Shown: positions 29,690-37,296, counted from the stretch's first letter. The stretch: DNA of 64,000 bases from an uncultured Verrucomicrobia subdivision 3 bacterium (GCA_903870815.1 CAIQEI010000025.1:30661-94660), one strand, 5' to 3'. The notes: a model not told the origin generated them from the letters alone. Numbers and translations: made by a program.

Positions 29690-31588
29690 ATGCTGAACAC
29701 CAAGTCATTTTTGACCGTTGATTTTGGAGCGGGCAGCCTCAAGCTGGCCGAGTTTGAAATCAACGAGTCCGGCGGTTTGCGGCTGAAATTGTTTGCCATC
29801 CAGGCGCTCGGGCTGGAAGGTTCGCAGGAAAGCTCCCGCGAAAATTCGATCTTGCAGGCTTTGCAGTCGGTGCTTGCCGAAAATCACCTCAAGACCAAAA
29901 GCGTCAACGTTTGCGCGCCCGGATTTCACGTTTTCTCCAAGTTTGTCAAGTTGCCCCCGGTCGATGCGGCCAAGGTCGGCCAGATCATCCAATACGAGGC
30001 GCAGCAGAACGTCCCGTTTCCGCTCTCGGAAGTGGTGTGGGATTACCAGATCCTCGGTTCCGCGGCGAGCGGTGAGCTGGAGGTGCTGCTCGTTGCCATC
30101 AAGTCCGATATTGTTGAACGGCTTTTCCGCGTGGCGGAGGAGGCTAAGTTGAAGTTGCATCTTTGCGACGCCTCGCCCGCCGCCCTCTGCAACGCGTTCC
30201 GCTACAATTATGGCGACCTCGAAGATTGCACCATGCTGCTCGATATCGGGGCCAAGACGAGCAATCTGCTCTTCTTCGAGCAGGGAAAAGTCTTTTCCCG
30301 CAGCATCAATCTTGGCGCGAACATCATCACGCAGGATTTTGCCAGCGAGGCGAAGTTGAAATTCGACGAGGCCGAGAAGATAAAAATCGCTGAGGGTTTT
30401 GTCAGTCTGGGCGGCGCTTACGAGGAGCCGGATAATCCGCATCAGGCGGCCATTTCCAAGATCGCGCGCCAGTTCATGACCAAGCTCCATATCCAGGTGA
30501 ACCAGACCATGCAGTTTTATCGCGGTCAGCAGGGCGGCACGGCGCCGCACCGCTTGTTCCTTTCCGGCGGCGCGTCCATCATGCCTTATACCGCGCAGTT
30601 TTTCGCCGAAAAACTGAATATCCCGGTGGAATATTTTAATCCGTTCCGCAACGTGCAGATCGACCCGGCGGTGAATCTGGAGGAGCTTTCTCGCGTGGCG
30701 CATTCGCTGGGCGAAGTCGTGGGTCTCGGCCTGCGCAACTTGGCGAACTGTCCGGTGGAAATGAATTTGATGCCGGACAGCACGCTGCGGTGGCAGTCCT
30801 TCAACCAGAAAAAACCCTATCTCGTTGCCGCCGTGTTCAGCCTGGTTCTCGTCGCCTTTGGTGTCGGGTTTTTGTTCTCGAAACTCGCCGTGAACAAGGA
30901 GCGTGAAATCGATCAGTTGAATCCCCAGGTGGAAGTGATCCAGGTTAAAGTGGGCCGGTTCAACTCGGCCTACAAGCAGCTGCAACGGGCGCAGGGCGAG
31001 GCCGGCCAGCTCACGCAATGGCTGCAGCAGCGCTTTTATTGGGCTGATTTTCTGGCGGAGGTGCGCCGCGCCCTCATCCGTTCCGAGGACGACCTCAAGA
31101 AAAAAGTGACCGCTCAAAAATCCGGCTCGGATGTCGGCATCTGGGTTGAGCATTTAACCTCCGCCCCGAACCAGGCCGGTGCCGCCGATCCCGCCGTTGC
31201 CAATCCGTCGGATGCAATGTCCGGGGCGGGGCTGGCCGCCAAAATGGCAGCGTTGATGATGAACGCAAATAAAGGCGGCCCGGCGAACCAGCCCGGCAAC
31301 AATCCCGTTGCCATTCCGGGCGCCGCGGTCCCCGCCGCCAATGCGGTGGACCAGTCAGCGGTGAATCCCGTCACCCTGGTCTGCCGGGCGGTGAGCCTTA
31401 AGAATATTGATCCCTCGGCCAACAACACGGACATTGCCTACGCGGTGCGGGACCAGATTGCCTCCTCGCCGTTGGTGAACCCGGATTCCAAAGCGACCCA
31501 GCTCGTGGGTGAAATCTCGCCCGATGACGCCAACGGCACCTTTACCTTCACGGTGAGCGTCACGCCGATTAAACCGCTGACTTTTTGA
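29690..31588 (+). CDS. pilM: Type IV pilus assembly protein: PilM (actin-like ATPase fold) fused to a PilN-like TM/coiled-coil region with a long Ala/Pro/Asn-rich C-terminal extension
   Basis: 632 aa. PilM-type N-terminus (LTVDFGAGSLKLAEF..., LLDIGAKTSNL, LFLSGGAS), then one TM helix (YLVAAVFSLVLVAFGVGFLF) followed by a coiled-coil. Confidence 0.82.
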   Translation: MLNTKSFLTVDFGAGSLKLAEFEINESGGLRLKLFAIQALGLEGSQESSRENSILQALQSVLAENHLKTKSVNVCAPGFHVFSKFVKLPPVDAAKVGQIIQYEAQQNVPFPLSEVVWDYQILGSAASGELEVLLVAIKSDIVERLFRVAEEAKLKLHLCDASPAALCNAFRYNYGDLEDCTMLLDIGAKTSNLLFFEQGKVFSRSINLGANIITQDFASEAKLKFDEAEKIKIAEGFVSLGGAYEEPDNPHQAAISKIARQFMTKLHIQVNQTMQFYRGQQGGTAPHRLFLSGGASIMPYTAQFFAEKLNIPVEYFNPFRNVQIDPAVNLEELSRVAHSLGEVVGLGLRNLANCPVEMNLMPDSTLRWQSFNQKKPYLVAAVFSLVLVAFGVGFLFSKLAVNKEREIDQLNPQVEVIQVKVGRFNSAYKQLQRAQGEAGQLTQWLQQRFYWADFLAEVRRALIRSEDDLKKKVTAQKSGSDVGIWVEHLTSAPNQAGAADPAVANPSDAMSGAGLAAKMAALMMNANKGGPANQPGNNPVAIPGAAVPAANAVDQSAVNPVTLVCRAVSLKNIDPSANNTDIAYAVRDQIASSPLVNPDSKATQLVGEISPDDANGTFTFTVSVTPIKPLTF

Positions 31589-31589
31589 T

Positions 31590-32519
31590 ATGGGTTGGAT
31601 CAAGCGAAATCTGTTTTTTGTGATCGGCGGCGTGGTGACCCTCGGGTTGCTCGGCGCGGGCGGCTATTATATCTATCAGGGCTGGACCCGCAACGCTGAG
31701 GCGGCGGACAAGCTGAATGCTATTTATGGCACGCTGAAAAGCCTTCAGCTCCAAAAGCCCGCCCCCGGTAATGAGAAGATTGACAACCTCCGGATCGCCA
31801 AGGAACAGGAACGGCAGATTCGCGCCTGGATCAACGCCGCTGAGGTGTTCCTCCCGCCTGTGCCGCCGATTCCCGCCGGCAACTTGACGAGCAAACGCTA
31901 TGCGACCGCGCTCGGGTCCACCATTTATCAGTTGCAGCAGGAGGCCCGGGCCGCCAACGTTTCGCTGCCACCGCAATTTTATTTCTCGTTCGACGCGGAA
32001 AATAACAAGCTGACCATTTCGCCGGCCAGCCTGGAGCCGCTGGCGGTGCAGCTGGGCGAGGTCAAGGCGATTGCGGAAACGGTTTTTTCGGCCCGGGTCA
32101 ATGCCTTGGATGGTATCCAGCGCGTGCGCGTGTCCGACGAGGATTCGGCCGGTCCGGCGGGTGATTACCTCGAAGAACATGCGGTGGGGGGCGATCTGGC
32201 GGTCATCACGCCCTACGTCGTCACCTTCCGCTGTTTCACCCCGGAATTGGCGCGCGTCATCGCCGCCTTTGCGACCTCTTCCAATACTTTTCTGATCAAG
32301 ACCGTCAACGTCCAGCCGGCCGCGCCGGCTTCAACGGCCCCCGGTGATGCCCTCGGGCAGCCGGTGCGCCTGCCCATGATGCCCGGATTTTACCCGGGTC
32401 TGTCGGCGCCGGTGGCCCCGCCGGCGTCGGGTCGGGGCGGCTTGCAAACGGTTTTGAAAGAGCAGCTGCTCCGGGTCTCGATGGAGGTCGAATTCGTGAA
32501 ACTGTTGCCGAAGAGTTAA
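31590..32519 (+). CDS. Amuc_1100-like / PilO-like single-pass pilus-associated protein
   Basis: 309 aa with an N-terminal TM helix (LFFVIGGVVTLGLLGAGGYYI). Position (directly after pilM), size and several blocks (VKAIAETVFSARVNALDGIQRVRV; PYVVTFRC...ARVIAAFATSSNTFLIKTVNVQ; C-terminal LRVSMEVEFVKLL) resemble my recollection of Akkermansia muciniphila Amuc_1100. The match is from memory, not searched. Confidence 0.5.
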   Translation: MGWIKRNLFFVIGGVVTLGLLGAGGYYIYQGWTRNAEAADKLNAIYGTLKSLQLQKPAPGNEKIDNLRIAKEQERQIRAWINAAEVFLPPVPPIPAGNLTSKRYATALGSTIYQLQQEARAANVSLPPQFYFSFDAENNKLTISPASLEPLAVQLGEVKAIAETVFSARVNALDGIQRVRVSDEDSAGPAGDYLEEHAVGGDLAVITPYVVTFRCFTPELARVIAAFATSSNTFLIKTVNVQPAAPASTAPGDALGQPVRLPMMPGFYPGLSAPVAPPASGRGGLQTVLKEQLLRVSMEVEFVKLLPKS

Positions 32520-32520
32520 A

Positions 32521-33306
32521 ATGTCATTTCTCAAAAAACATTACGAAAAGATCTTGCTGGGCCTCGTGCTGGCGGGCTTGGTTGGCGTGCTGGTCTTCAT
32601 GCTGTTTTATATTGCGGCCGATAAACGGGCGATGGAAGATCTCGCGGAGACTATCATCAATCCGTCGGCCAAGCCGCTCACGAATATTGATCTGACCGTT
32701 TCCGAAGCGGCGTTGGCCCGGGTGCAATCCCCCTTTCGGTTGGATTTTGAAACGGGCAACAAGTTGTTCAATCCCTTCGAGTGGCAGAAAACTCCCGATG
32801 GGCGGCTCATTAAAAAAGCCACCAGCACGGGGCCGCAAATCGTGGTCGTGACCAACATCGCACCGCTCTATCTGATCTTGTCTCTGGACTCGGTCACGAC
32901 CAACGAACTGGGTGCGCGGTATGTCGTTAGTGTCGAACATCAGGGGGCCACCAATGTGGCCCGGCGCCACCGGACCACCCACTATGTCTCGGTGGGCGAC
33001 AAGAACGACACCTTTGCCCTGTCTTCCATTCAGGGCCCTCCGGAAAATCCCGATGCCTTGATTCTGAAATTAACGGATACCGGCGAGCCGGCCACGGTGA
33101 CCCGCAGCCTGCCTTACCGCCGCGTGGATGGCTATCTGGCCGACTTCCGGTACGATCCCGAGAAGCGGGTTTTTCGGGGCCGCCGGGTTGGCGACCGGGT
33201 TTCTTTTGGGGGCGCGGATTACCTGGTGGTTGAGATCAACCAGCACGAATTGATCTTGGCCGACCAGTCCAACCAAAAAAAAACCTCTTTGCCATTTGCG
33301 CCCTGA
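32521..33306 (+). CDS. Single-pass membrane protein of the pilus module (positional PilP/Amuc_1099 equivalent)
   Basis: 261 aa with an N-terminal TM helix (ILLGLVLAGLVGVLVFMLFYI). It is tightly packed, 1 nt after the previous stop. No motif recognised. Confidence 0.35.
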   Translation: MSFLKKHYEKILLGLVLAGLVGVLVFMLFYIAADKRAMEDLAETIINPSAKPLTNIDLTVSEAALARVQSPFRLDFETGNKLFNPFEWQKTPDGRLIKKATSTGPQIVVVTNIAPLYLILSLDSVTTNELGARYVVSVEHQGATNVARRHRTTHYVSVGDKNDTFALSSIQGPPENPDALILKLTDTGEPATVTRSLPYRRVDGYLADFRYDPEKRVFRGRRVGDRVSFGGADYLVVEINQHELILADQSNQKKTSLPFAP

Positions 33307-33358: not shown

Positions 33359-35749
33359 ATGACAAAAGCCGCCCTCCTTTGCCTCGGCCTCGCCGCCCTG
33401 CTTGCTTTGCCCTCCGCCGCGTCCGCCCAGGAAAATTCCACTGCCGTCGCGGTCAACGAAGCCGTTTTGCGCCAGGCCAATACCATCGTGCTCCGCCAGA
33501 AGCTGGCCGCGGCCAGTCACGCCAACCAGGCGGGCGACACTCTCGCCGCCGCCAAGCTTTACCAGGAATCGTGCGAACTCGTTTCCCAAATCGGCTCGGG
33601 TATTGATCCGGAAGCCGCCCAGGCCGTCAATGGCTTGGCCACCACCCGGCTGGCCCTGGCGCAGGCGGACCAGAGCCGCGGAGATTTCCGTGATGCGGCC
33701 ACGCAAGCGCAGCAGGTCCTGAAGGTGGATCCGAAAAATCCCGCCGCCTTGGCTTTCAAAAAACAAAATGACCAGATGCTGGACGCTCAGAAAGGCCAGA
33801 TTCCCAGCGCGGCCGCCACGGAGTTGGGACCGCAGGTGGCCGCCCAAAAAACGGATGCCGCCACGATGGTGCAGGACGGAAAATTGTTTTACGAAATGGG
33901 CAAGCTTGACGATGCCGAATCCAAACTAAACCAGGCCATCGCCCTCGACCCCGATAATCCGGCTGCCTATTATTACATGAATCTGGTGCAGCAGGCCAAG
34001 TTCGCCCGCGAGGACGTGCAGCATTCTGTGGATACCCAGAAGCGCATGACCCAGGTGGAAAAGCACTGGATTTTGCCTTCACCCAATGTCACGTTGCCGG
34101 TGCCCAATCCCTACGCCACAAACTCGCTGGTTTACACCGGCCCTGGCCGCCAGGCGATTGTGACCAAACTTGACCATATCCATCTGGACAATGTTACTTT
34201 TGACGGATTGCCCCTCAGCGAAGTTCTGCGCAATTTATCCGAGCAATCCAAGCTCCGCGATCCCGAACGCAAGGGCGTAAATTTTCTGATCAATCCCAAC
34301 CCCGACGAATCCGGCCCGCCTGTGGCGGTGACTCCGGTGAGCCTCCCCGGAGCCTATGGTGCCTATGGTGCCCCCGGCGCCGCCGGTGCCGCCCGGATTG
34401 ACCCCTCCACCGGCTTGCCCGCGGCGGGGGCGGATACCTCCACCGGCGGTGGCAATAGTGGTGAGCCGGTTGACGTTGGCTCCTTTATCATAAAAATCCC
34501 GAGGTTGACGGATGTTCGCCTGGCCGAAGTTCTCGACGCCATCGTTTTGGTGGCGGATCATCCGGTCAAATATTCGGTGCAGGACTTTGCCGTTGTGTTT
34601 TCCGCCAAGGGATCGGAAACCCCCCAGCTTTTCACCCGTGTCTTCAAGGTGGATCCGAACACGTTTTATTCCGGCCTCGAAAGCGTCAGTACCGCAACCT
34701 TTGGCAACGTCAGTAGCAGCAGCAGCAGCAGCGGCGGTTATGGCGGGAACAGTGGCGGGAACAATGGCGGAAATAACAACAACAACAATAGCAGCAGCGG
34801 CAACAGCGGCACCGTCGTGGGTGTCGTCAACGCTTTCTCCGGTGAGGGCGGTTTGCGCAATACCGGTGGCAACGGCAATTATGGCGGTGGCCAGTACGGC
34901 GGCGGTGGCGGTCAGTACGGCGGCGGTGGCGGTCAGTACGGCGGCGGTGGCGGTCAGTACGGCGGCGGTGGCGGCCAGTACGGCGGCGGTGGCGGCCAGT
35001 ACGGCGGCGGTGGCGGCCAGTATGGCGGAGGTAATAACTCCGGCGTCTCCGTCAATTCCAGCGGCGGTTTGCGCTATGTCACCACCCTCACCTCGGCCTC
35101 GGATCCCAGCTTGGCCGCCAAGCAGTTTTTCACCACGCTCGGGGTCAATCTCAACAGCCCGCCGGGCAAATCTGTTTTCTTCAATGACCGGCTCGGCAAA
35201 TTGTTCGTGAAAGCTACGGCCGATGATTTGGATACCATTGAGCGGGCCATTGAGATGATGAATGAAGTCGCCCCGCAGGTGCACATCAAGTCGCGCTTCA
35301 TCGAGGTGCAGCAGAATGACAATGCCGCGCTCGGCTTCGACTGGTATGTCGGCCAGTTCGGCATCGGCAACAAGGTCGTAAGTCAGGCCGGCAATCCCGG
35401 GTCGCTCACCGTGCCGGCCTCCTCGGCCAATCCGCTCGGTGCGTTTCCCGGCGCCACCGCTGCCAACCTGGTGCCCGATGGCGGCCAGCAGTTGTTCTCC
35501 AGCGGTCTGGCCTCCGGCAACGGGGCCACCACCGCCACCATCACGGGCATCCTGACCAATCCCAATTTCCAGGTAGTCATCCATGCGTTGGAGGAGCGCC
35601 AGGGATTTGAATCCTTGGCCGAACCGGAAGTCACCACCACCAGCGGTCGCCAGACCCAGATGCGGGCCACGCAGATCATCTCCGTCGTCACCGGCGTTTA
35701 TTATCAGGCGGCCCCCGCCGTCACCTCCACTACCACCGGCACACCCTAA
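33359..35749 (+). CDS. pilQ: Secretin (PilQ/GspD family), N-terminal polypeptide: signal peptide, TPR-like region, low-complexity S/G/N/Q/Y linker, N-domain and first half of the secretin domain
   Basis: Signal peptide MTKAALLCLGLAALLALPSAASA|Q. N-domain (LFVKATADDLDTIERAIEMMN, HIKSRFIEVQQNDNAALGFDW). Secretin-domain start (NPNFQVVIHALEERQGFESLAEPEVTTTSGRQTQMRATQ). It ends at TAA 35747-35749. Confidence 0.85.
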   Translation: MTKAALLCLGLAALLALPSAASAQENSTAVAVNEAVLRQANTIVLRQKLAAASHANQAGDTLAAAKLYQESCELVSQIGSGIDPEAAQAVNGLATTRLALAQADQSRGDFRDAATQAQQVLKVDPKNPAALAFKKQNDQMLDAQKGQIPSAAATELGPQVAAQKTDAATMVQDGKLFYEMGKLDDAESKLNQAIALDPDNPAAYYYMNLVQQAKFAREDVQHSVDTQKRMTQVEKHWILPSPNVTLPVPNPYATNSLVYTGPGRQAIVTKLDHIHLDNVTFDGLPLSEVLRNLSEQSKLRDPERKGVNFLINPNPDESGPPVAVTPVSLPGAYGAYGAPGAAGAARIDPSTGLPAAGADTSTGGGNSGEPVDVGSFIIKIPRLTDVRLAEVLDAIVLVADHPVKYSVQDFAVVFSAKGSETPQLFTRVFKVDPNTFYSGLESVSTATFGNVSSSSSSSGGYGGNSGGNNGGNNNNNNSSSGNSGTVVGVVNAFSGEGGLRNTGGNGNYGGGQYGGGGGQYGGGGGQYGGGGGQYGGGGGQYGGGGGQYGGGGGQYGGGNNSGVSVNSSGGLRYVTTLTSASDPSLAAKQFFTTLGVNLNSPPGKSVFFNDRLGKLFVKATADDLDTIERAIEMMNEVAPQVHIKSRFIEVQQNDNAALGFDWYVGQFGIGNKVVSQAGNPGSLTVPASSANPLGAFPGATAANLVPDGGQQLFSSGLASGNGATTATITGILTNPNFQVVIHALEERQGFESLAEPEVTTTSGRQTQMRATQIISVVTGVYYQAAPAVTSTTTGTP
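34883..35023 (+). repeat. 21-nt tandem array (ggcggcggtggcggYcagtaY), one partial plus six full units, encoding GGGQY(GGGGGQY)6
   Basis: Read directly. The full units differ only at two synonymous third positions. An (AGC)6 run at 34715-34732 and an AAC run lie just upstream. Confidence 0.92.
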
Positions 35750-35764
35750 TCCCGAAAGGTTCAC

Positions 35765-36424
35765 ATGCTAAATTTTTCAGCTAACCCCCGCAAAAAACTG
35801 GCGCTGTCCGCCGCGCTGGTCCTTGGCTTGGTCGCCGGGCCAGCCGTTCGAGCCCAAAATAACACCTACAATCCGGGGGCTTCTGCCATCGGCTTCAATA
35901 CCTCGCCGGTGGAGACTGGGCCGATTTTGGACGTGGTGCCTTATGTCTTGGCGGACGGCTACACCATCAACATGGCGCTCATCCCCTCGGTCACCGTTTT
36001 CAACGGTTATGACACCCCGCCGACCATTCCGAACGTGACGGGCAACTTGAATGTCGTCCAGCTCCCGATCATTCTGCCGGACTTTACCGTGCGTCAGGTG
36101 GTCACCACCGTCAACGTCTGGGATAATCAGACTGTCGTTCTCGGCGGCCTCATCTCCTCGTCGTTGCAGTCCACCAAAAACAAGGTTCCGGTCATCGCCG
36201 ACCTTCCCCTGGTGGGCAACCTGTTCCAAAGCGCGAGCAAGACGACGCAAAAAAAGAATCTGATGATTTTTGTCACGGCCACCATCGTGGATCCGGCCGG
36301 CAACCGGGTCCATTCCGATGATGATTTGCCGTTTGCCCAGGCCGCCGTTCCGGTCCAGCCGCCCGGGGCCGGCGTGGTTTCAGATACCGTCAAAAAAGTG
36401 CCGCCGCCCGTGGTCACCCAGTGA
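35765..36424 (+). CDS. pilQ: Secretin family, C-terminal polypeptide: own signal peptide plus second half of the secretin domain
   Basis: ATG 35765 is preceded by GAAAGG (35754-35759). N-terminus MLNFSANPRKKLALSAALVLGLVAGPAVRA|Q. Then GPILDVVPYVLADGYTINMALIPSV, NQTVVLGGLISS, KVPVIADLPLVGNLFQS, KKNLMIFVTATIVDP, which are canonical secretin C-terminal blocks. It is in the same reading frame as the upstream ORF. Confidence 0.85.
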   Translation: MLNFSANPRKKLALSAALVLGLVAGPAVRAQNNTYNPGASAIGFNTSPVETGPILDVVPYVLADGYTINMALIPSVTVFNGYDTPPTIPNVTGNLNVVQLPIILPDFTVRQVVTTVNVWDNQTVVLGGLISSSLQSTKNKVPVIADLPLVGNLFQSASKTTQKKNLMIFVTATIVDPAGNRVHSDDDLPFAQAAVPVQPPGAGVVSDTVKKVPPPVVTQ

Positions 36425-37296
36425 GTCGCCTCCTGATTGTTGACGGGCACGCCTATGCCTACCGGGCGTTTCACGCAATCCGGGAGTTGCGTTCGCCCGC
36501 CGGTCAGCCGACGAATGCCGTTTATGGCTTCGTTAAGATGCTGGAGAAAATGCGTTCGGCCGTGGCGCCCACGCACGGTATTGTGGTCTGGGACGGCGGT
36601 TTGAGTGCCGAACGGCTGGCCGCGCTGCCGGAGTACAAGGCGCAGCGGCCGGAAATGCCGGCGGATTTGCGGCCGCAGTTGGATGGCATCGCGGATTTTT
36701 TGGCGGCCGCCGGTGTGGCCAGCTACCGCCAGTCTGGCGTCGAGGCGGATGATTATATCGCCACGCTGGCGCGGCAGGCGGCGGCGGGTTGGAACGTGGT
36801 GATCGCCAGTTCCGACAAGGATTTTATGCAGTTGGTGTCGGCGCGGATCGGGTTGTTGAATCCGAACGACAAGTCCGGGGCGATTTGGGGCCGCGGCGAG
36901 GTGCTGGCCAAAACCGGCGTGCCGCCGGAATCGGTGGCCGACTGGCTGGCGCTCATGGGCGACGCTGTGGATAACATCCCCGGTGTCCCCGGGGTCGGCC
37001 CGAAAACGGCCGCCGAACTGTTGCGTCAGTTTGGCTCGGTCGACGTGTTGTTGACGCGGCTGGATGAGGTGAAATCGGAAAAATTGCGGGCGGCGTTGCG
37101 TGCTTCGGCAGCCGCGGTGATCCGCAACCAGCAACTGGTGCGCCTGCCGGATGTGCCGTGCGGGTTTGTGCCGGAGCAGTTGGCGTTCCGCCCGGCCGAA
37201 CACGGGGCATTGCGTCGGCTGTATGGCGGTTGGGGATTCAAGGGCTTGCTGGCCGCGCTGGATGCCGGCGTTGAAAAACAGGCAGAATTGATTTGA
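36421..37296 (+). CDS. Stand-alone 5'-3' exonuclease (FEN / Pol I N-terminal domain family)
   Basis: 291 aa. LLIVDGHAYAYRAFHA, EADDYIATLA, SSDKDFMQL and the H3TH block (GDAVDNIPGVPGVGPKTA). Its GTG start overlaps the secretin stop (GTGA). Confidence 0.88.
   Translation: MSRLLIVDGHAYAYRAFHAIRELRSPAGQPTNAVYGFVKMLEKMRSAVAPTHGIVVWDGGLSAERLAALPEYKAQRPEMPADLRPQLDGIADFLAAAGVASYRQSGVEADDYIATLARQAAAGWNVVIASSDKDFMQLVSARIGLLNPNDKSGAIWGRGEVLAKTGVPPESVADWLALMGDAVDNIPGVPGVGPKTAAELLRQFGSVDVLLTRLDEVKSEKLRAALRASAAAVIRNQQLVRLPDVPCGFVPEQLAFRPAEHGALRRLYGGWGFKGLLAALDAGVEKQAELI

Follow-up and report, generated by a model that had tools for sequence, protein, structure and literature searches.

Amuc_1098 (PilQ) of Akkermansia muciniphila, a member of the secretin family dealt with here, is a single chain of 907 residues and the most abundant outer-membrane protein of that bacterium (PMC4960237). 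Secretins made from split genes have been reported in type III secretion systems (T3SS), namely from rhcC1 (nolW) and rhcC2 of the rhizobial Rhc-type T3SS and from hrcIIC1 and hrcIIC2 of the Pseudomonas syringae T3SS-2, the significance of which was stated to be unknown (PMC3574062, PMC3973906). In the present study, we analysed a window of 64,000 nucleotides (the whole stretch of DNA, GCA_903870815.1 CAIQEI010000025.1:30661-94660) from an uncultured Verrucomicrobia subdivision 3 bacterium, in which a secretin domain is divided between two adjacent open reading frames, ORF1 and ORF2. The original prediction, made from this sequence, had started from the view that secretins are single polypeptides and had read the locus as a genuine two-chain secretin and not as the product of a random nonsense mutation. 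The general statement has a published exception in rhcC1/rhcC2 (PMC3574062, PMC3973906), a split that spares the barrel. As to the locus itself, ORF1 and ORF2 probably represent one Amuc_1098-type type IV pilus (T4P) secretin protomer made as two polypeptides. The split locus is very probably a working two-chain pore, not a broken gene, since its second half brings an export signal of its own and dozens of species have kept the arrangement.

According to the list of open reading frames and their translation, ORF1 encodes the N-terminal secretin chain as a precursor of 796 aa (33359-35749; all features given here lie on the + strand of the window). It ends in ...VVTGVYYQAAPAVTSTTTGTP, also given as ...ATQIISVVTGVYYQAAPAVTSTTTGTP, with TSTTTGTP as its final residues and a TAA stop at 35747-35749. 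The intergenic spacer of 15 nt (TCCCGAAAGGTTCAC, 35750-35764) carries a Shine-Dalgarno-like element, GAAAGG, at 35754-35759, and no other start codon is present in this interval between the stop and the ATG. Five nucleotides past the element, at 35765, an ATG opens ORF2, which encodes the C-terminal secretin chain as a precursor of 219 aa (35765-36424) and shares, in the window, the reading frame of ORF1. The coordinates of both genes, the stop, the GAAAGG-N5-ATG arrangement and the common frame had all been noted beforehand and agree with the sequence. Furthermore, the exact ORF2 protein occurs on at least ten contigs from several ENA samples, and in both independent assemblies readable across the junction (L084 and L085) the junction, including the TAA, is base-identical to the window, so that neither chance nor an assembly error accounts for it.

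The first 30 residues of ORF2 (35765-35854) form, by heuristic scoring, a predicted Sec signal peptide for signal peptidase I with cleavage before Q31. The leader, MLNFSANPRKKLALSAALVLGLVAGPAVRA, followed by QNNTYNPG, divides into an n-region (MLNFSANPRKK), an h-region (LALSAALVLGLVAG) and a c-region (PAVRA), with a net n-region charge of +2, a maximal hydropathy of 2.6 over ten residues, a VRA/Q site of the A-x-A/Q type (the slash marking the cut) and no lipobox Cys. The n/h/c layout proposed from the outset is therefore borne out by these heuristics, and the same layout recurs in related split loci. Across the 38 intact split loci described below, the leaders measure 26-32 aa, carry an n-region charge of +1 to +4 in most cases, reach a hydropathy maximum of 1.9-3.3 and end at an A-x-A/Q-type site, and 15 of the 38 share a K-L-A-L motif at the boundary of the n- and h-regions. 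The predicted mature chain begins from Q31 with NNTYNPGASAIGF..., and its first residue (Q31, codon at 35855) is Gln in nearly all split loci; such an N-terminus could cyclise to pyroglutamate and shield the free end in the channel lumen. In fused orthologues, the match to ORF2 starts only at residues 36-51, no hydrophobic stretch is found there, and a low-complexity loop of 20-30 aa rich in Gly, Asn, Ser and Thr takes the place of the leader. A donor of the leader was sought in the window, among the 5' ends of other genes and in the leader of ORF1, with no significant match, and no second secretin was found in the 64-kb window.

Between them, the two chains cover the secretin domain. ORF2 matches positions 40-169 of the 169 positions of PF00263 (Secretin) in Pfam (E 2e-27; 96.3 bits against a cut-off of 27.5), in keeping with the earlier statement that it continues with the remaining secretin blocks, and the tail of ORF1 can be aligned with the beginning of the secretin domain in solved GspD/PulD structures, that is, to the missing ~39 positions of PF00263. 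Pfam also finds in ORF1 TPR matches at residues 56-232 and a weak Secretin_N match. For both chains the best NCBIfam match is NF042912 (Amuc_1098_fam), to which ORF1 aligns at profile positions 5-381 and beyond (E 2.3e-63, 214.5 bits) and ORF2 at positions 663-804 of 805 (E 2.5e-33, 115.2 bits). The equivalog cut-off of that family, 750 bits, is reached neither by ORF1 nor by ORF2 nor by their sum, so the locus is a divergent subfamily-level relative and not an equivalog by the NCBI threshold. With its N-terminal TPR region followed by a secretin barrel, and its place in a cluster with Amuc_1101/1100/1099-type genes, it has the make-up of an Amuc_1098-type secretin; what it does not have is a whole barrel protomer from one polypeptide, as a stop, a new start and a leader lie inside the domain in 38 intact genomes.

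Where the domain is cut can be stated more exactly. In pIV, cryo-EM has shown the secretin domain to run from an outer-barrel strand through the beta-lip and another outer-barrel strand to Gate 1, Gate 2 and further outer-barrel strands, Gate 1 lying between two conserved Gly pivots (PMC8563730). In the study of XcpD, too, the central gate is the loop that runs from one Gly pivot to the other, its extremities being poorly resolved (PMC10550240), and the tip between the pivots is disordered in the cryo-EM structures (PMC8563730; PMC10550240). In a family-profile alignment, the first pivot of Vibrio cholerae GspD, G453 (5wq8, set against the G453A mutant 5wq9), falls on the T of 'RATQ', 25 residues before the C-terminus of ORF1, and the second Gly pivot is the G of ETGP, 22 residues into mature ORF2. 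We also built an AlphaFold2 (AF2) model of ORF1 residues 591-796 fused to mature ORF2, with an alignment of 95 fused homologues as input. The model reached a mean predicted local distance difference test score (pLDDT) of 74.7 and folded strands 182-193 and 217-237 into a hairpin, with the junction (206/207) in the low-confidence loop 194-216. Because the pivot alignments and this hairpin place the junction between the gate strands, the break is, on the model, at the tip of the central-gate (Gate 1) loop. The TAA had been described as lying in the middle of the secretin domain; it does lie inside the domain, but more exactly at this loop tip.

The predicted elements on either side follow the same order. 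The ascending Gate 1 strand, ATQIISVVTGVY (ORF1 residues 772-783, 35672-35707), corresponds to AF2 strand E182-193 and is placed also by the alignments to 5wq8 and 5wq9, and the Thr/Gly-rich ORF1 tail behind it, together with the TAA (35708-35749), makes up half of the predicted Gate 1 tip loop (AF2 loop 194-216, pLDDT 53-67). The N-terminus of mature ORF2, QNNTYNPGAS..., gives the other half of the loop and then the descending Gate 1/inner-barrel strand NTSPVETGPILDVVPYVLADG (35855-35947; AF2 strand E217-237). Gate 2 lies approximately at ORF2 residues ~83-109 (36011-36091), where the model has a loop (259-280) between inner-barrel strands and before an invariant Arg (fused residue 286), an assignment that we infer from the order of Gate 1 and then Gate 2 in pIV (PMC8563730). 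Outer-barrel strands 3 and 4, with the GGL motif and ...KKNLMIFVTATIV (36128-36289; AF2 strands E298-316 and E331-351, pLDDT >90), form the stretch that aligns best to all solved secretins. When the fusion model was compared with the PDB by Foldseek, the top 40 hits were all secretins (E 1.7e-18 to 1.5e-11), and the strand order expected of a double-barrel fold with Gate 1 and Gate 2 hairpins is found in the predicted structure. We also considered the tip of the extracellular beta-lip, the site of cap gates, as the position of the break and rejected it: in pIV the 'vGq.vP ... dvG' segment comes after the lip and is Gate 1 (PMC8563730), and the alignments to 5wq8 and 5wq9 agree.

Taken as a whole, ORF1 is predicted to open with its own signal peptide, to pass through the TPR region and low-complexity linkers into an N3-like domain, and then to give the lip region with outer-barrel strands 1-2, some of the inner-barrel strands and, last, the ascending strand of Gate 1. 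ORF2 is predicted to follow with a signal peptide, the descending Gate 1 strand and the remainder of the inner barrel, then with Gate 2 and outer-barrel strands 3-4, and to close with a C-terminal tail that is conserved. Both new termini would then be situated inside the channel lumen, where the domain is most flexible and least conserved. Behind the barrel, the C-terminus of ORF2 (36290-36424) shows a motif, IVDPAGNRVHSDDELPFAQ..IP.QP, which is nearly invariant in split and fused members of the family and which none of the other secretin classes in our alignments has; it could act as a ligand of the TPR region at the N-terminus of these same proteins.

The split is by no means confined to the window. 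A search with ORF2 against 5.8 billion proteins gave 2,387 matches, of which the best 120 were inspected for length; all 120 measure 171-229 aa at 70-97% identity, come from NCBI, JGI, ENA and Logan, and in some cases sit on contigs of 100-285 kb. The source annotations name these short genes only 'general secretion pathway protein D'. A scan of GTDB with one genome per species yielded 80 loci, all from Verrucomicrobiota by sequence in spite of several record titles bearing other taxon names, and most of them bearing the label Limisphaerales or 'subdivision 3', Verrucomicrobia that live in soil and fresh water. When ORF1 and ORF2 were mapped, 40 of 79 loci proved to be split (the window counted) and 39 to have one continuous ORF, which measures 914-1026 aa where the locus spans the whole gene. 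Two split loci (L038 and L078) look frameshifted and were set aside, leaving 38 intact species-level split loci in which both halves are kept at 59-85% identity, along with the stop, spacer, start and leader. The possibility that the split might be unique to this assembly has thus fallen away, given its presence in independent assemblies and in these 38 genomes.

The cassette between the halves varies among the loci. The frame of the second gene relative to the first is 0, 1 and 2 in 12, 9 and 17 of the 38 loci, respectively, so the shared frame seen in the window, correct as it is there, is incidental and not conserved, and neither read-through nor frameshifting can be the general mechanism. 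Spacers are A/T-rich and 20 nt long at the median, mostly 14-38 nt and in one case 208 nt; 34 of the 38 loci have TAA as the stop, and this in genomes that are not themselves rich in A/T (58% G+C in the window); and the last residue of ORF1 is Q or P in 36, behind a Thr/Gly-rich tail. After the leader, mature ORF2 is highly conserved (Q..N..PGTSAI...Q.VETGPILDVVPYVLSDGYTINL). From SGRQ to GPxLD, fused proteins have a gate segment of 55 aa at the median and split ones a segment of 54 aa, counted over the ORF1 tail and mature ORF2. Because the leader is absent from the fused proteins and the gate lengths agree (54 against 55 aa), a split locus amounts to a fused one with an inserted stop-spacer-start-leader cassette, and after cleavage the product would be the same protein with one nick.

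Two more divergent lineages of Verrucomicrobia, only ~52-54% identical and of the 'ADGYTIQ' type, are split as well (L087, 884-1609, and L088, 869-1507), ORF1 again ending in ...TP and ORF2 again carrying its own leader, so that the arrangement reaches past the immediate clade. Among the representative proteins inspected, further genuine split C-halves were limited to P0239, P0242, P0257 and P0273. Several other inspected matches of ~170-260 aa were rejected as splits, being truncated gene calls or, in the case of P0269, a chimera. This last protein (238 aa) has a Tat (twin-arginine translocation)-like signal and a PQQ (pyrroloquinoline quinone)-dehydrogenase-like N-terminus joined to a secretin C-half at GPTLDV, and is probably a chimeric assembly or gene call. 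The best-scoring representative, P0236 (1901 aa), contains four separate secretin-like stretches and is either an unusual multi-secretin fusion or a misassembly.

Both halves remain under purifying selection after the split, which excludes a pseudogene. By the Nei-Gojobori method, nine to eleven pairs of split loci gave ratios of non-synonymous to synonymous substitution rates (dN/dS) of 0.09-0.20 for the whole of ORF1, 0.03-0.16 for its part with N3 and the barrel strands, 0.01-0.19 for its last strands before the break and 0.04-0.19 for mature ORF2. The signal peptide of ORF2 is more relaxed at 0.22-0.84, as is typical where composition, rather than sequence, is constrained. Conservation in 38 genomes, selection on both halves, a break in a disordered loop and matching lengths all speak for the genuine split secretin that had been proposed.

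Of the alternatives, the one that fares best holds that the halves have become sub-functionalised, ORF2 alone serving as a reduced pore or as partner of another secretin, and ORF1 as a TPR/N-domain scaffold or pilotin-like factor whose barrel strands are vestigial. The pilotin-like TPR region of ORF1, with its weak NCBIfam matches to Tgl and PilW, fits this reading, as does the precedent of rhizobial RhcC1 (N-domains) and RhcC2 (barrel), which are separate proteins, RhcC1 being reported as constitutive, unlike the rest of the system (PMC3574062). In the same direction points at least one genome, the metagenome-assembled genome (MAG) PLHK01, where a fused paralogous secretin (L065, PLHK01000106.1) exists beside the split locus L002; this paralogue has 918 aa, is 57% identical over the ORF2 part and stands in a different context without Amuc_1100/1099-type neighbours, and by its presence the split copy need not be the cell's sole secretin. 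Yet the supposedly vestigial barrel strands are among the most constrained parts of ORF1, up to the very break, and mature ORF2 (~189 aa) has no more than half of Gate 1 and two outer-barrel strands out of four. Moreover, the length of the gate is preserved exactly when counted across both chains, and the two genes lie adjacent, ~20 nt apart, in nearly all split loci. We therefore consider sub-functionalised halves unlikely.

Less probable still, and indeed a slim chance, is that the ORF2 leader is never cleaved and acts as a signal anchor tethering the C-terminal half to the inner membrane. A few homologues do have atypical c-regions, for example L023 (...TTGRP/Q) and L088 (...RAFG/Q). In nearly all loci, however, a small-x-small motif followed by Gln stands at a constant distance (14-23 residues) from the GPxLD strand, the short h-region fits a cleaved signal peptide rather than a transmembrane helix, and an anchor would keep the Gate 1 strand away from the outer membrane.

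A single polypeptide produced by programmed read-through or frameshifting, with the hydrophobic segment as an insertion in the gate loop, would suit the window taken by itself, where the two frames coincide and one TAA separates them. TAA is an efficient stop codon. The preference for TAA across the relatives speaks against such a product, and so does the spread of the second gene over all three frames, behind spacers that vary in length and sequence and sometimes hold further stops, for which no one recoding mechanism would serve. The conserved start codon, the complete n/h/c leader with its A-x-A/Q site and the lack of any hydrophobic segment in the loop of fused orthologues likewise tell against it, so that this reading appears highly improbable. 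A pseudogene or artefact, be it the recent nonsense mutation in a hydrophobic insertion that the original prediction had kept as its alternative, a sequencing error or a misassembly in a dying gene, is effectively refuted, for although the data are wholly metagenomic and damaged or mis-sequenced copies such as L038 and L078 do occur, the junction is identical in independent assemblies, the cassette and intact halves are conserved under purifying selection at 59-85% identity among 38 species-level genomes and in three frames, and the added leader is precisely what a second exported chain needs.

With regard to the two-chain secretin itself, several points weigh against it. The signal peptide of ORF2 is predicted by simple heuristics. 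A purine-rich, Shine-Dalgarno-like core precedes the second start in only 22 of the 38 split loci. The AF2 model is an artificial fusion and a single protomer, of a kind that cannot test the association of separate chains, and its Foldseek TM-scores (template modelling scores) are only ~0.4, a value that may arise from comparing an isolated protomer with protomers derived from rings. Every split genome found is metagenome-assembled, and the fused paralogue beside a split locus in PLHK01 belongs here as well. Finally, split and fused states are interspersed in the tree, a patchy distribution that the two-chain model does not explain.

This distribution deserves closer attention. In a bootstrapped neighbour-joining tree of the loci (1,189 concatenated positions), at least five changes between the split and fused states are needed even if nodes with less than 90% support are disregarded. 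How many are needed varies with the part of the locus used, with 10 in the tree of flanking genes and 3 in that of the ORF2 part, against a mean of 14 for shuffled labels. A single origin with a clean split clade is supported neither by the secretin-only tree nor by the concatenated one, and parsimony does not distinguish one origin followed by at least five re-fusions from at least five independent splits. Nevertheless, the shared TAA stop, terminal Q or P, A/T-rich spacer and K-L-A-L leader motif (in 15 of 38) suggest one origin of the split, in which case the patchiness would come from alleles recombining or from clean re-fusions that happened repeatedly. The mosaic split locus L055 may point to recombination at the junction: its flanks and ORF1 are nearest to the fused loci L047 and L040 (78-82% identity), and its ORF2 part is nearest to the split loci L002 and L001 and to the window (82-88%, against 76-78% for L047 and L040). 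Interspersed states are seen also in L013 as compared with L053 and L079.

These observations gave rise to a further thought, which we offer only tentatively and regard as rather doubtful: the two-chain state might be a selected alternative allele of the pilus secretin, exchanged among Limisphaerales by homologous recombination around the junction, and not just a tolerated nick. If this were true, allele exchange would explain both the patchiness, with its at least five changes, and mosaics such as L055; cuts at the gate tips could alter gating, for example towards easier or wider opening; separate export could stop premature pore formation before the halves meet in the periplasm; and the locus would offer a natural system for studying how a secretin protomer folds and pairs independently of the beta-barrel assembly machinery (BAM).

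Returning to the two-chain secretin, we propose the following course of its biogenesis. ORF1 and ORF2 would be co-transcribed, with ORF2 translated from its own Shine-Dalgarno element and ATG and coupled to ORF1 through proximity. Each chain would cross the inner membrane by the Sec pathway by means of its own signal peptide, and signal peptidase I would cut the 30-residue ORF2 leader after VRA. In the periplasm the chains would be joined into one protomer by the Gate 1 hairpin and by the barrel sheets that they share, and the protomers would multimerise and insert into the outer membrane in the manner of single-chain secretins, the outcome being an otherwise normal secretin whose central-gate loops each have a nick in the backbone at their flexible tip. 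For PulD, insertion has been reported to proceed via a membrane-adsorbed prepore and without BAM (PMC4604470); the same paper, which concerns trypsin resistance, holds no information on tolerated nicks.

What we have here is a conserved two-gene secretin divided within the barrel, and not a new kind of machine. It should interest the fields of secretins and of outer-membrane protein assembly, where the folding of the secretin protomer, its multimerisation and its BAM-free insertion are still debated. If the two-chain secretin is true, two separately exported chains show that the protomer needs no covalent continuity, that the central-gate loop can be open-ended and that the halves can meet in the periplasm, and a ready-made split system becomes available for experiments on assembly and gating. 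For annotation, it means that a 'general secretion pathway protein D' of ~215 aa and its upstream partner of ~790 aa in Limisphaerales should be read as halves of one PilQ-type secretin, and neither as pseudogenes nor as two secretins. Additionally, the repeated switching between fused and split states makes an unusually clear case for the study of gene fission and fusion and of the gain and loss of signal peptides.

The surroundings of the two genes support their assignment to a pilus system. The cluster begins with a gene for an Amuc_1101-family, PilM-like pilus complex protein of 632 aa (29690-31588; NF045709, E 2.8e-144; TIGR01175 pilM, E 7.6e-42), followed by a gene for an Amuc_1100-family pilus-like protein of 309 aa (31590-32519; NF038287, E 3e-18, with PF28028 recorded for the identical gene in L084) and by a 261-aa gene in the Amuc_1099 position (32521-33306), which has no NCBIfam match and is syntenic in nearly all related loci. 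With these genes upstream, the locus is identified as the Verrucomicrobia type IV pilus-like cluster known from Akkermansia. The Amuc_1101/1100-type synteny is common to most of the split and fused loci that reach far enough upstream, and because split and fused loci share their neighbours (Amuc_1100-type gene, 261-aa gene, secretin, 5'-3' exonuclease), they are orthologues. The last of these, a 5'-3' exonuclease gene of 291 aa with a GTG start (36421-37296), overlaps the stop of ORF2 by 4 nt (GTGA, 36421-36424) and abuts the secretin gene in most related loci; it is a conserved downstream neighbour outside the pilus system, and the overlap suggests that the secretin is co-transcribed, or coupled in translation, with a DNA-repair gene unrelated to it. 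Within ORF1, the translation shows a predicted Sec signal peptide of n/h/c layout, MTKAALLCLGLAALLALPSAASA followed by QENS (33359-33427), with an A-x-A site and no lipobox. Tandem Repeats Finder reports a 21-nt repeat of 6.9 copies with 96% matches (34889-35032), which encodes GGGGQYG units in a low-complexity linker. In another assembly with an identical ORF2, ORF1 has 782 aa in place of 796, the difference being two repeat units, so the copy number of the GGGGQYG repeat is polymorphic.

How, then, does this locus compare with the systems already described? Amuc_1098/PilQ of A. muciniphila belongs to the same family, NF042912, and has the same N-terminal TPR region and C-terminal barrel and the same Amuc_1101/1100/1099-type genes upstream, but it is a single chain, as in the 39 more distant orthologues examined, whereas the present secretin is cut at the tip of Gate 1 and its second part carries a leader. 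The difference from RhcC1/RhcC2, which with the P. syringae pair is the only precedent for a split secretin that we found in print, is of another kind. On pNGR234a, the only domains of NolW (234 aa) are N0 and Secretin_N, RhcC2 (475 aa) combines pilus-N and BON domains with a complete PF00263 (1-169 of 169), and the two genes lie ~12 kb apart on opposite strands. That split thus follows a domain boundary and leaves the barrel whole, whereas here the barrel itself is divided at about position 40 of PF00263, the genes lie next to each other and the second half has gained a leader. RhcC1 and RhcC2 belong, furthermore, to a T3SS, and the present genes have T4P neighbours (PilM-like and Amuc_1100-type), with no sct (T3SS) genes seen among the flanking ORFs examined. 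The literature on split, two-gene or frameshifted PilQ, as far as our coverage, which was not exhaustive, extends, contained no description of an intra-barrel arrangement, in line with the remark in the original prediction that none was known; since RhcC2 keeps a complete PF00263 barrel, the intra-barrel split still appears to be undescribed.

With canonical secretins such as GspD/PulD, PilQ, InvG and phage pIV, the locus shares the predicted double-barrel fold, the order of elements and a Gate 1 tip that is disordered and variable (PMC8563730, PMC10550240). It differs from them in that theirs is one polypeptide per protomer, in the length of Gate 1 between the pivots (~30 residues in canonical secretins against ~48 here), and in the first pivot, which is Gly in those proteins and Thr in the Amuc_1098-type family studied here. 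A parallel to two chains forming one barrel comes from engineered split variants of OmpA, in which two fragments, produced by a cut in a loop and each exported with its own signal sequence, come together in vivo as one beta-barrel; these are laboratory constructs of a monomeric, BAM-dependent barrel. The split described here is natural and conserved, and concerns a multimeric secretin, of a class reported to insert without BAM (PulD, PMC4604470).

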